From Candidatus Moraniibacteriota bacterium (GTDB lineage: Bacteria; Patescibacteriota; Minisyncoccia; Moranbacterales; UBA1568): a stretch of 51,123 nt of DNA. This document shows, piece after piece, positions 47,173 through 50,933 of this stretch (positions are counted from its first letter, which is position 1; each line of letters begins with the position of its first letter). The notes beneath the pieces were generated by a model that was not told where the DNA came from, searched no databases, and worked only from the letters and a program-made list of their open reading frames with translations. Where the stretch lies: assembly GCA_013336285.1 (NCBI GenBank), contig JAAXTX010000005.1, positions 1-51,123 of the forward strand. Direction: 5' to 3'. The translations under genes were made by a program, and so were the position numbers.

Positions 47173-47430
47173 CTATGAGCACATAGCCGGAAAGAGCATG
47201 CGTCCTTCCCCAAGACATACTGTGTCCTCGTAATTATCGGCATATACCGGCAATTCACCGAAAGACACCGCCTCGGTATACTGAACGGTCGTACCGTCGT
47301 CGAGTAGACAATATGAGGGATCGGTAATCTCCCCATGCTGGTCCGCTTCGAGTATGAGTTCCCGGAGAAAATCTGGTGAAAAATAGAACGTACACCGTTC
47401 TTTGCTTTGTACCGTCTTGATTCCTGACAT
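47173..47430 (-). CDS. Hypothetical small acidic protein (85 aa)
   Basis: GGAGG SD (ctggaggcttca-ATG). An isolated gene between an AT-rich spacer and the REP cluster. No recognisable family. Confidence 0.55.
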   Translation of the reverse strand: MSGIKTVQSKERCTFYFSPDFLRELILEADQHGEITDPSYCLLDDGTTVQYTEAVSFGELPVYADNYEDTVCLGEGRMLFPAMCS

Positions 47431-47633
47431 TGAAGCCTCCAGTTTTTATCCTGTTAAGGTGATATTTTTTCCGAACATGAAATAATAACATTTATAACAA
47501 TAAAAGTCAATAATAAAAGAAGGCCCTATAAAGCCTAAAAGCGAACAAGCTGCCTCATGTTTGGCAACAGACCATATCAAGGGAGCACTTCTATCAAAGT
47601 ATTCCCTTTGAAAATGCGGGTCATTCCTACAGC

Positions 47634-50600
47634 CTACACCACCAGATTCACGAGCTTCCCGGGAATGACTATAACGCGTTTAGGTTCCTTGCCGTCGAGA
47701 AATTTCGCGACTTTCTCACTTCCCAGTGCTTTCGCCTTCAGGTCATCCTCGGTCGCGTCCGCGGAGATTTCGAACGAATCACGGACCTTTCCATTCACCG
47801 AGACGACGATCGTCACGGTATCCTCAACGAGAAGTGTCGGATCGGCCTCCGGCCACGATGACAGGAAAATGGATTCCGTATTGCCAAGTTCCGTCCACAG
47901 CTCCTCCGCCATATGCGGCGCGAACGGGGACAGGAGCCTGAGAAATATGCCATACGATTCTTTCGCGACGGACTGTTCCTTCTCAAACGCGTTGGCGAGA
48001 ATCATGAGCGAGCTCACTCCCGTATTGAACCGGAACGCGTCAATGTCATCCGTCACCTTCACGACGGTCCTGTGAACGAGTCCGTCGATTTCCCGTACCG
48101 CATCGGCGGAATCGGAAACCTTTCCTGACAATTTCCATACCTTCTCCAGGAACCGTCTTGTACCGATGACCCCATCCGTGCTCCAGGAGATGTTCTGGCT
48201 GAACGGCCCCATGAACATCTCGTAGAGCCGCATCGCGTCCGCGCCGAAGTCACGTACCATGTCGTCGGGATTGATGACGTTCCCCCAGCGTTTGGACATC
48301 TTTCGTCCGTCGGATGCGAGGATGAGACCGACATTGACTAGCTTTCGGAACGGTTCGTCCGTCGAGACCGCACCGATATCGAAGAGGAGCTTATGCCAGA
48401 ACCGCGCGTAAATGAGATGCCGCGTCGCGTGTTCGGCTCCCCCGACATACGCGTCGACGGGCATCCATTTTTGTTCATCTTTCTTGTCGACGATCGCGTC
48501 CTGATTCTTCGGATCGATATAGCGCAGGTAGTACCACGACGATCCCGCCCATTGCGGCATCGTGTTCGTCTCGCGCTTCGCGGGACCGCCGCACACGGGG
48601 CAGGTAGTATTCACCCAGTCGTCTATACCGGCCAGTGGCGACTCTCCCGTCCCCGTCGGCTCATAACTTTCTACGTCCGGCAAGACGACGGGAAGTTCCG
48701 ACTCCGGCACCGGCACGACCCTGGAAACATGCATGGGTTCGAGTTCCCAGCCGACGAGTCCGTTCTCGCGTATCCGCTTCACATAGTCCGGCGAGAGCGC
48801 CGTGTACGATTCCTCCAACTCTTCCGCGGTCGAGAATTCGCGGCTGAAGATTTTTCCGTGCAGATCCTTCTTTTCAGACTCGAACAGTTCCCGGACATCC
48901 TTGAAACGATAGGCCGTCTTCACCCTGAACAATTTCGTTTCTCCCGTCGGCTTAAACGCGAATCGGAGCGTATCACCTTCCGCGACATCCCCGAAATATC
49001 TCTCGGGCTCGTCGGGATTCAAGGCACGCGTCTCGACCGTCTTCTTTCCGGACAGCAGAAGTTTCCATATCTTCTCTTCACGGAAGTTCAACGTGAGTTT
49101 AACTGCGGCCTCGTTCGCCGCACACGACTCGCAATGCACGAGCGGGATCGGTTCGCCCCAATATCGCTGACGCGAGAACACCCACTCACGAAGCTTGTAC
49201 TTCACTACTTTTTTCCCACGTCCTTCGGACTCGAGTTTTTCGGTGATTTTCTCCCGGGCATCTTTCGACGAAAGACCGGAAAATATCTCCGAGTTCACGA
49301 GAAATCCGTCGTCGACGAACACCTTCCCGTTCAGGTATTCCCAATCGACGGCATCCTTTTCCCGTTTCTTTCCCTGCAACTGATACTCCTTGAATTCCCT
49401 GGCGAACCTCAGACTGAGTACGAGCGCCCCGTGTCCGCTCAATACCTTTTCATCTTCCTCGAAATCCTCGTCCGTCAAGCCGAACTCCCCGATATTCGGT
49501 CCGATATCGATTTCCATGCCTTGATCATTCGCATACACGACGTTGGTGAGTTCTTCCGACAATTTCTTCCGTTTCACTTCCCTGTACCCAAGAGAGGAAA
49601 ACACCTCGAGGGCGACAGACTGTGTTGCGGCGTCCTTGACGATAAGATCCATATCGTCATGCCCGCGATACACGATACCCGCATGGAACGCGCATGAAAG
49701 ACCGCCGAGAACCCAGATGTCGATGCCTCTTTCCTTGGCCGCCTTTCGCACCTCATCAAGTGCCTGAAGGGTTTTTTCGGTCCGTTCGAAATCGGAGAAA
49801 TCGGGAGTGACAGACTGCCGTACGGGAAGTCCGTACTTCCTCGCGAAAACGGCATCGCGCGTATCGTGCGCCGGGACCGCCATAACCGCGCCGGTTCCGT
49901 AATCGCCGAGCACATAGTCCGCGACGAATACCGGGACTTCCTCGCCGTTGATCGGATTGACCGCCATAATTCCCTCGAGCCGGACGCCCGTCTTCTCGCG
50001 CCCTTCAGCGGTCCTCTCCATCTCGGTCTTCTTCTTCGTCTCCTCTAAATATGCGAGAATTTCCTCCTGATTCTTGATTCCCGTTCCCCGTTTACCGCTA
50101 TCCGTCATCCGTTCTCTGACCAAAGGATGTTCCGGCGCGACCACTACATACGTGCAGCCGAAGAGCGTATCGACACGCGTCGTAAAAACATCAATGTATT
50201 CTTCTGCTTCGTTTGGAAATTCGAAATTCGAAATTCGAAATTTTACAATAGTTCCCTCGCTCCGGCCGATCCAGTTCCGCTGTGATTCCTTTATCGACTC
50301 CGGCCAATCAAGTCCTCCAAGCCCCTCCAAAAGACGATCGGCGTAATCGGTGATACGAAGTACCCACTGCCGCATCGGCTTCTTCTCGACGACGGTCCCG
50401 CACCGCTCACACGCCCCATTCTCCAGGTCCTCGTTCGCGAGTCCCGTCTGACACGACGGACACCAGATGATCGGCTCGTACGATTCATAAGCGAGTCCCT
50501 TTTTGAACATCTGAAGGAATATCCACTGCGTCCACCGGTAATATTCGGGGTCGGTCGTGTTTATTTCGCGATCCCAATCGTAGGTGAAACCGAGCCGGCC

Positions 50601-50933
50601 AAGCTGCTGTTTAAAGGTCGCGACGTTTTCACGTGTCGTCTTGTTCGGATGCGTCCTGTTCTTTATCGCATATTGTTCCGCCGGAAGACCGAATGCGTCC
50701 CACCCCATCGGATGTAGCACCGCGAAACCTTGGAGCTGTTTCATTCGGGCGATGACATCGGTCGAAATGTACCCCTTCGGATGCCCCACATGAAGCCCGG
50801 CCCCCGACGGGTACGGGAACATATCGAGCGCATAGAATTTCTTCCCACGGCCGTATTGTCGGAATGTTCCCTGTTCCTCCCAGATTTTCTGCCACTTCCC
50901 CTCGATATTTTCGGGGTTATATCGCCCATTCAT
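47634..50933 (-). CDS. leuS: Leucyl-tRNA synthetase with two extra inserted domains (1099 aa)
   Basis: FPYPSGAGLHVGHPKGY (HIGH), CP1 editing domain (TTRVDTLFG...AVPAHDTRD), SRQRYWGEPIP, WAGSSWYYLRY, KMSKRWGN (KMSKS). In-frame extra blocks at aa ~376-536 and ~606-737. Confidence 0.95.
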   Translation of the reverse strand: MNGRYNPENIEGKWQKIWEEQGTFRQYGRGKKFYALDMFPYPSGAGLHVGHPKGYISTDVIARMKQLQGFAVLHPMGWDAFGLPAEQYAIKNRTHPNKTTRENVATFKQQLGRLGFTYDWDREINTTDPEYYRWTQWIFLQMFKKGLAYESYEPIIWCPSCQTGLANEDLENGACERCGTVVEKKPMRQWVLRITDYADRLLEGLGGLDWPESIKESQRNWIGRSEGTIVKFRISNFEFPNEAEEYIDVFTTRVDTLFGCTYVVVAPEHPLVRERMTDSGKRGTGIKNQEEILAYLEETKKKTEMERTAEGREKTGVRLEGIMAVNPINGEEVPVFVADYVLGDYGTGAVMAVPAHDTRDAVFARKYGLPVRQSVTPDFSDFERTEKTLQALDEVRKAAKERGIDIWVLGGLSCAFHAGIVYRGHDDMDLIVKDAATQSVALEVFSSLGYREVKRKKLSEELTNVVYANDQGMEIDIGPNIGEFGLTDEDFEEDEKVLSGHGALVLSLRFAREFKEYQLQGKKREKDAVDWEYLNGKVFVDDGFLVNSEIFSGLSSKDAREKITEKLESEGRGKKVVKYKLREWVFSRQRYWGEPIPLVHCESCAANEAAVKLTLNFREEKIWKLLLSGKKTVETRALNPDEPERYFGDVAEGDTLRFAFKPTGETKLFRVKTAYRFKDVRELFESEKKDLHGKIFSREFSTAEELEESYTALSPDYVKRIRENGLVGWELEPMHVSRVVPVPESELPVVLPDVESYEPTGTGESPLAGIDDWVNTTCPVCGGPAKRETNTMPQWAGSSWYYLRYIDPKNQDAIVDKKDEQKWMPVDAYVGGAEHATRHLIYARFWHKLLFDIGAVSTDEPFRKLVNVGLILASDGRKMSKRWGNVINPDDMVRDFGADAMRLYEMFMGPFSQNISWSTDGVIGTRRFLEKVWKLSGKVSDSADAVREIDGLVHRTVVKVTDDIDAFRFNTGVSSLMILANAFEKEQSVAKESYGIFLRLLSPFAPHMAEELWTELGNTESIFLSSWPEADPTLLVEDTVTIVVSVNGKVRDSFEISADATEDDLKAKALGSEKVAKFLDGKEPKRVIVIPGKLVNLVV

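Follow-up and report, generated by a model that had tools for sequence, protein, structure and literature searches.

A nucleotidyltransferase domain nested in the CP1 editing domain of a leucyl-tRNA synthetase from a Candidatus Moraniibacteriota bacterium

Introduction

Few enzymes are as conserved as the aminoacyl-tRNA synthetases. Here we describe the leucyl-tRNA synthetase (LeuRS) of a Candidatus Moraniibacteriota bacterium, a member of the candidate phyla radiation (CPR), in which the CP1 editing domain is interrupted by 162 residues related to the nucleotidyltransferases (NTases) that modify antibiotics. The gene, leuS, lies on the minus strand of a stretch of 51,123 nucleotides (positions 1 to 51,123 of contig JAAXTX010000005.1, assembly GCA_013336285.1). 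This whole stretch is called the window below, and unless stated otherwise nucleotide positions refer to it and amino acid (aa) positions to the encoded LeuRS.

The closest described enzymes are ANT(2'')-Ia (AadB; structures 4XJE, 4WQK and 5CFU) and Lnu(A) (4FO1), which are free proteins of 160-180 aa and are usually found on mobile resistance elements. In ANT(2'')-Ia, Asp44, Asp46 and Asp86 hold two Mg ions and Asp86 is the catalytic base; Arg40 and His42 contact ATP, His42 being essential, and the residues that stack against the antibiotic include Tyr74 and Tyr134 (PMC4313920). The insert in our LeuRS has the same two-subdomain fold over nearly its full length. Its GG loop and its counterparts of Arg40, His42, Asp44 and Asp46 align with those of ANT(2'')-Ia, and a third acidic motif on a strand is present. 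However, it is only 17-18% identical to ANT(2'')-Ia and Lnu(A), and it is nested in an essential CPR synthetase. The toxins MenT1 and MenT3 of Mycobacterium tuberculosis (8AN4, 6Y5U) likewise combine the minimal NTase fold with a C-terminal helical subdomain. They extend the 3' CCA ends of tRNA (PMC10435456), and this end is also the substrate handled by the CP1 domain that hosts the insert. Unlike the MenT toxins, the insert is without an antitoxin partner, its structural score against them is lower than against the antibiotic NTases, and nothing about it suggests toxicity.

On the side of the host, the protein agrees with the canonical bacterial LeuRS of Thermus thermophilus (1H3N, 2BYT) and Escherichia coli (4AQ7) in all catalytic and editing motifs and in domain order, but a 13-residue CP1 loop has given way to the 162-aa domain and about 130 aa have been added at the zinc site. 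In a survey of domain insertions from 2026, the LeuRS editing domain was reported exclusively as an insert and never as a host (PMC13114784); the LeuRS described here is a counter-example. Isoleucyl-tRNA synthetases with an N-acetyltransferase domain (NCBIfam NF040702, ileS_w_GNAT), which are known here from the family model only, are also class Ia synthetases that carry a small-molecule-modifying domain, but both the synthetase and the enzyme fold are different. In the full-text literature, searched mostly without subscription journals, we found no description of an NTase or a Nudix domain nested in LeuRS. CP1 is itself inserted in the Rossmann fold, and we found no paper on an arrangement in which it houses, in turn, an entire second enzyme that can be exchanged for a Nudix domain.

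Results

The leuS gene and the site of the insertion

The source genome (G000) has 1.35 Mb in 81 contigs, with an estimated completeness of 100% and an estimated contamination of 3.6%. Its leuS occupies 47634..50933 (minus strand), an open reading frame (ORF) of 1099 aa (P0001) in which HIGH is found as HVGH (aa 48-51), KMSKR at aa 878-882, and the CP1 editing motifs TTRVDT and AHD at aa 251-256 and 355-357; the HIGH, KMSKS and CP1 editing motifs were invariant in our LeuRS alignment (A1). P0001 was the sole LeuRS gene of the genome in a profile search with TIGR00396 (bacterial LeuRS), scoring 1007.8 bits against a curated cut-off of 548.4. The profile matched it as four collinear pieces, delimiting two clean insertions, and the extra length of the protein is explained by the NTase insert together with a second insert at aa ~605-737.

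The NTase module extends over 49323..49808 (minus strand; aa 376-537), includes both subdomains of an ANT(2'')/Lnu-type enzyme and aligns with residues 2-157 of ANT(2'')-Ia. It replaces merely 13 residues (363-375) of the T. thermophilus LeuRS (1H3N). Positions 1-367 of TIGR00396 stop at aa ~386 and positions 364-438 restart at aa ~534, so that no LeuRS profile position is lost and the insertion is clean. A first-pass annotation, made from the letters of the window alone, had proposed an extra block of about 160 residues at 49326-49808, which is exactly aa 376-536, and the GG...RGHDDMDL string that it quoted is found at aa 400-431. The block is real, but it does not follow the editing domain as was then supposed; it lies inside it. 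The editing-domain profile PF13603 is split by the insert, with positions 1-152 matching before it (49809..50279, minus strand; aa ~219-375) and the remainder after it. In addition, the isolated CP1 constructs of E. coli (2AJG) and M. tuberculosis (5AGR) that have been solved extend ~47 residues beyond the insertion point, and when aa 218-593 are modelled, the inserted lobe is followed by a helix and a strand that belong to CP1. The C-terminal part of CP1 occupies 49197..49322 (minus strand), from aa 538 to about aa 579, the end being approximate.

Family and fold of the insert

The insert is a new, distant member of PF10706 (Aminoglyc_resit; Aminoglycoside-2''-adenylyltransferase). Taken alone it scored 28.6 bits (E 1.8e-6) against the gathering cut-off of 21, and the whole P0001 scored 24.1 bits. 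This match spans only profile positions 3-85 of 149, and the C-terminal half is backed by structure comparison. Weaker matches were given by DUF2204, NTP_transf_5 and the Lnu(D) and ANT(2'')-Ia models, and 47 of the 100 nearest ESM-Atlas clusters were small PF10706 proteins. In a profile search of the PDB, ANT(2'')-Ia was matched (E 1.2e-4), its GG and DxD motifs lining up with those of the insert; in the sequence searches of the same database it alone fell below E 0.001, with the Lnu(A) chains at E ~0.06. The NCBIfam models NF000064, NF000017 and NF000061 (ANT(2'')-Ia, Lnu(D)/Lnu(P)) gave 19.3, 22.9 and 16.4 bits. Because these scores are far under the cut-offs of 350, 325 and 300 bits, the insert is not an orthologue of the ANT(2'')-Ia/Lnu resistance genes. 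No match of the insert to DUF1814/AbiEii was obtained in a Pfam scan at E<=1.

When the insert was modelled alone with AlphaFold2 from a 12-sequence alignment, the predicted local distance difference test score (pLDDT) was 94 and the predicted template modelling score (pTM) was 0.89, as would be expected of a domain that folds independently. VIA-align superposed this model on ANT(2'')-Ia (4XJE) with Z 17.8 and a root-mean-square deviation of 2.1 A over 144 residues (chain residues 2-157); LnuA followed with Z 15.8, MenT1 and TM1012 with Z 13.1 and MenT3 with Z 12.1, while Cid1 and Pol beta gave Z 7-8. Foldseek also placed ANT(2'')-Ia first. The alpha-beta-alpha-beta-alpha-beta core of the Pol-beta fold is found in the model, and the insert is thereby predicted to be a complete small Pol-beta NTase with both subdomains, beyond the mere core motif. 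The earlier proposal of a Pol-beta-fold NTase of the aminoglycoside/lincosamide type was thus borne out by a profile score above the gathering cut-off, by the structural matches to ANT(2'')-Ia and LnuA and by the conserved motifs.

We also considered an intein or another spliced element. This was rejected, as no Hint family appeared in the Pfam scan and the junctions (between ...SV and TPD..., and between ...LNG and KVF...) have the wrong residues.

Catalytic residues and selection

NTase motifs I and II are located at 49647..49706 (minus strand). They consist of the G410-G411 loop and the D427-M-D429-L metal motif, preceded by R423 and H425; in the HMMER alignment R423, H425, D427 and D429 are paired with Arg40, His42, Asp44 and Asp46 of ANT(2'')-Ia, the last two being Mg ligands. 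The third acidic motif, E474-I-D476, is on a beta strand (49506..49514, minus strand), and from its spacing and the range of the Pfam alignment it is presumed to be equivalent to the Asp86 region. This signature is conserved across 21 LeuRS proteins that carry the module. We tallied conservation over 22 carriers, namely these 21 and one beta subunit of phenylalanyl-tRNA synthetase (PheRS-beta, from G053), and found G411, R423, D427, D429, K456, K515, D527 and D530 to be invariant. Position 476 is acidic in 21/21 LeuRS carriers and position 474 is Glu in 20 of them. The C-terminal subdomain (49344..49391, minus strand) contains K515, R522, K526, D527 and D530, which are invariant or nearly so and possibly bind the nucleoside triphosphate (NTP) or the acceptor.

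Divergence in the insert was 0.17-0.29 at nonsynonymous and 0.63-0.87 at synonymous sites. As most pairs are saturated at synonymous sites, a usable ratio of nonsynonymous to synonymous divergence came from one pair only, the least saturated, in which it was 0.16 in the insert compared with 0.12 in the core. The insert is under purifying selection about as strong as that on the LeuRS core. The first-pass annotation had left it open whether the domain was a degenerate RNA-binding module or an active enzyme and had pointed to the catalytic Asp residues as the place to look. The DxD pair (D427/D429) turned out to be invariant in the homologues, and the conserved catalytic residues together with the purifying selection favour a predicted active enzyme over a degenerate one.

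Distribution and mosaic history

The insert was found in six other LeuRS proteins (47-65% identity) in a collection of 5.8 billion proteins and in three more LeuRS clusters among 1.84 billion representatives, and an exhaustive representative search returned merely seven clusters at E<=0.001. Within the order, the module gave a strong match in 15 of 319 species genomes from seven families, G000 and fourteen further GTDB species; 13 of the embedded copies are in LeuRS and 2 in PheRS-beta. The 8 congeners and the 106 remaining genomes of the family all lacked it. In a class-wide sample of 401 genomes only G000 and G034, which is of the same order, were matched, and none outside the order. The survey of LeuRS that the first-pass annotation had called for shows the same insert in 21 LeuRS carriers; the module is rare and its distribution patchy.

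Bacterial-type LeuRS with the module was also seen on three contigs titled 'archaeon', 'Lysobacteraceae bacterium' and 'Candidatus Woesearchaeota archaeon' (JBAZKP010000004.1, JAACEG010000065.1 and JAWANI010000020.1; L042, L045 and L050), which are probably mis-binned or mislabelled CPR contigs.

The leuS gene of G000 is a mosaic. Its LeuRS core is 80-86% identical to that of five congeners and falls within their clade (100 in the Shimodaira-Hasegawa-like approximate likelihood ratio test, SH-aLRT). In a sliding window, aa ~361-548 resembles no congener and is 59-64% identical to the inserts of the LeuRS proteins P0002-P0004, whose cores are only 52-58% identical to the G000 core. Nucleotide identity to the genes of G004 and G002 is 87-90% through codon 360, drops to 60% or less from codon 361 and recovers to 70-87% at about codon 551. 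The foreign segment is consequently mapped to 49284..49853 (minus strand; codons ~361-550), that is, the module and ~15 flanking codons on each side. In the insert tree G000 groups with P0002-P0004 with weak support (SH-aLRT 80). Inserts and cores disagree elsewhere as well: the inserts of G137 and P0005 are 77% identical but their cores 57%, while the cores of G276 and G039 are 71% identical but their inserts 51%.

The simplest history would be a cassette exchange by homologous recombination into the native leuS. The conserved flanks AVPAHDxRD...KYGLP and G.L.NS..F.GL may have served as recombination anchors, and the incoming NTase module may have replaced a Nudix module or an empty loop in the leuS of this lineage. 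On a larger scale the module would travel among permissive synthetase loops in this CPR order. Horizontal transfer of the whole leuS was rejected, because the core is nested among the congeners at 80-86% identity and only codons ~361-550 are foreign. A phage origin of the insert was also examined, and tblastn against 50,697 phage records gave no match.

Two LeuRS lineages with cores ~65% identical occur in the genus. Type 1 is found in G000, G002, G003, G004, G006a and G008, and type 2 in G001, G005, G007 and contig C23 of G006, a genome that appears to hold both types. The type 2 core groups with those of the NTase-bearing P0002 and P0004.

Other occupants of the loop and other hosts of the module

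Six congeners (G001, G002, G004, G005, G007 and G008) have a 155-aa Nudix domain at exactly the loop that holds the NTase in G000. These domains match PF00293 with 46-51 bits and their Nudix box is intact; in G004 and G001 they are located at L015:2719-3183 and L020:1714-2178, with ~51 bits. The other two congeners (G003 and G006a) have a short loop and no module. A search of G000 for a close free copy of the congeners' Nudix domain gave nothing better than E 5e-4. In four further genomes of the order (G101, G231, G120 and G271; L035, L036, L037 and L039) this LeuRS loop is occupied by NTase domains that are more divergent, with E 6e-8 to 2e-4 against the A2 profile. Three of these have GGxGxD...TRxHxDxD and are even closer to the ANT/Lnu enzymes, which suggests that several independent NTase lineages colonised the CP1 site. 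The CP1 loop thus acts as a slot for swappable enzyme modules, and within this genus the swap can be followed with mapped breakpoints.

The module is not confined to LeuRS. In two genomes of another family of the order it is nested in PheRS-beta, in G053 within the B5 domain (L046:567-3533, WGDO01000025.1), where the equivalent of D476 is Val, and in G048 within the N-terminal tRNA_bind OB domain (L030:1-2190). In each case the PF10706 match interrupts a Pfam domain of the host, so the module moves between two synthetases and three sites. It also exists as a free gene (P0010; 160 aa), 38-41% identical to the insert depending on the alignment and with all motifs kept, which is flanked on its two sides by a Nudix-like and an Endo IV-like gene and is not near leuS. 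More distant free NTases are encoded in G036 and G280. None of the three free copies examined in relatives (L009, G036 and G280) was beside leuS; their contexts were unrelated.

Discussion

We suggest, with somewhat less than even confidence, that the insert is an autonomous, active and Mg-dependent O-nucleotidyltransferase, carried in a surface loop of the LeuRS CP1 domain as an exchangeable cargo and directed at a small-molecule acceptor. Binding of the NTP would involve the GG loop, Arg423 and two metals coordinated by Asp427, Asp429 and Glu474/Asp476, and the nucleoside monophosphate would be transferred to a hydroxyl of the acceptor. By family resemblance the acceptor would most probably be a small molecule, while LeuRS would continue to charge and proofread tRNA-Leu normally. 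We favour this reading because the best family and fold matches are small-molecule NTases, a free homologue exists, three insertion geometries are tolerated, and the slot, which is dispensable, is taken by unrelated enzymes in sister species. Several observations weigh against this. The tRNA 3'-end NTase MenT1 is a clear structural neighbour (Z 13.1). The acceptor is not predicted by the Lnu and ANT(2'')-Ia equivalog models, since the scores are far below their cut-offs. H425, the equivalent of the essential His42, is kept in 19/22 carriers but replaced in the other three and in the free-standing relatives. The model of CP1 with the NTase (aa 218-593) has a pTM of 0.83, which in our view two near-equal lobes could hardly reach if the prediction of their relative placement were not fairly confident, and this hints at a fixed mounting on CP1 rather than a loose tether. 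Finally, every embedded copy that we found is in an aminoacyl-tRNA synthetase, in or adjoining an editing or tRNA-binding domain. Such a distribution is far from random and could point to a function linked to tRNA rather than an independent one.

The main alternative, which we regard as possible but rather unlikely, is that the module is directed at tRNA. It would add a nucleotide to the 3' end (the A76 ribose) of tRNA-Leu or of a mischarged tRNA, or repair this end, as long as it is presented by the synthetase, in the manner of MenT toxins or of A/CCA repair, and charging would be regulated or rescued in this way. The 15 embedded copies in the order are without exception in synthetases, at the LeuRS CP1 loop, PheRS-beta tRNA_bind and PheRS-beta B5, with the B3/4 editing domain lying between the two PheRS-beta sites. 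The toxins MenT1 and MenT3, by which tRNA CCA ends are extended (PMC10435456), match over the whole domain with Z 12-13. The invariant K515 and D527 recall K137 and D152 of MenT1, an unaligned correspondence that serves as a lead only, and the pTM of the joint model would also suit a defined orientation on CP1. On the other hand, the sequence family and the best fold matches are those of small-molecule NTases, a close homologue stands free, away from any synthetase gene, and three unrelated insertion geometries argue against an action in cis that depends on geometry. The slot is filled by Nudix or empty in the congeners, so the handling of tRNA-Leu does not need the module, and the isoelectric point of the module ranges from 4.7 to 9.4 across carriers, without the consistently basic character of an RNA-binding domain. 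G000 also has a normal CCA-adding enzyme (PF01743, in an ORF of 529 aa). This led us to reject the idea that the module substitutes for a missing one. A broader form of the tRNA-directed explanation, which we consider still more doubtful, is that the NTase, the Nudix domain and the other slot modules of CPR synthetases make up a kit for the care of tRNA 3' ends, mounted on editing domains; the module would then add back, extend or mark A76 as the acceptor end is held by the synthetase, and could counter toxins by which tRNA ends are damaged or blocked, or gate charging.

It is improbable, in our opinion, that the domain is catalytically silent and modulates LeuRS, either by sensing nucleotides that it binds or as a structural or RNA-binding lobe. 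The equivalent of ANT(2'')-Ia His42, shown to be essential in that enzyme (PMC4313920), is not invariant and one PheRS-beta copy is without the equivalent of D476, but the 21 LeuRS carriers and the free gene all retain the DxD, the Arg and the third acidic motif, and pure scaffolds rarely keep such a set. Moreover, the congeners live without the module. Even less probable is a selfish passenger of no benefit to the cell, which could not be deleted precisely from an essential gene and would spread by recombination of leuS alleles. The patchy distribution, the disagreement of the insert and core trees and the fact that the loop can be empty would agree with this, but the insert is under purifying selection equal to that on the essential core, the catalytic residues are conserved, there is no evident way for an NTase to promote its own spread, and the Pfam scan revealed no nuclease or intein features. 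As for a chimeric join produced in assembly or binning, which the first-pass annotation had raised as a concern, we reject it as far as the contigs allow, although leuS lies 190 bp from an end of the contig and the bin has some estimated contamination. The same architecture is present in more than 20 independent assemblies, and the flanking LeuRS sequence is 80-86% identical to that of the congeners. A Logan contig of run X1, produced by another assembler, spans 48900-50300 and crosses both junctions with zero differences; this is evidence at the level of contigs, and X1 may be the source sample. A record of 151 nt from a second sample crosses the junction at 49808. Runs X3 and X4 contained only short conserved pieces of the stretch.

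The near-identical LeuRS cores within one genus, with an NTase, a Nudix domain or nothing in the loop, provide a natural near-isogenic set for the study of module function, and the CP1 loop marks a permissive site for the engineering of LeuRS fusions. This pattern suggests that essential translation enzymes serve CPR bacteria, whose genomes are tiny, as vehicles for accessory enzymes. Were the module to act on tRNA ends or on inhibitors of the synthetase, it would represent a new layer of translation quality control or of defence, and the care-kit explanation, if true, would define a new class of synthetase-borne activity that modifies tRNA ends.

Other features of the LeuRS genes

The second insertion of P0001, of ~130 aa, is located directly after the first CxxC of the zinc site (aa ~605-737; 48723-49121, minus strand). 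It has a weak match to ASCH (PF04266, E 0.006), which is under the gathering score. Within the genus it is also found in G004 and G008 only, with 67-87% identity. In G008, whose LeuRS frame has 1266 aa, another CP1 site, near the position of P0001 aa 250, is occupied by a second Nudix domain that differs from the first (PF00293, 46 bits; L016:1075-1500), so that this LeuRS carries in total two Nudix domains and the ASCH-like insert. Low-complexity TTDNSPLTT-like repeats of variable length occur before the anticodon-binding domain in the LeuRS of G004 (L015), G002 (L017) and G001 (L020); they reach ~75 aa in G004 and are absent from the LeuRS of G000. Directly downstream of leuS, over ~500 bases, the G+C content falls to 0.39 (47350-47649), compared with ~0.55 within the gene.

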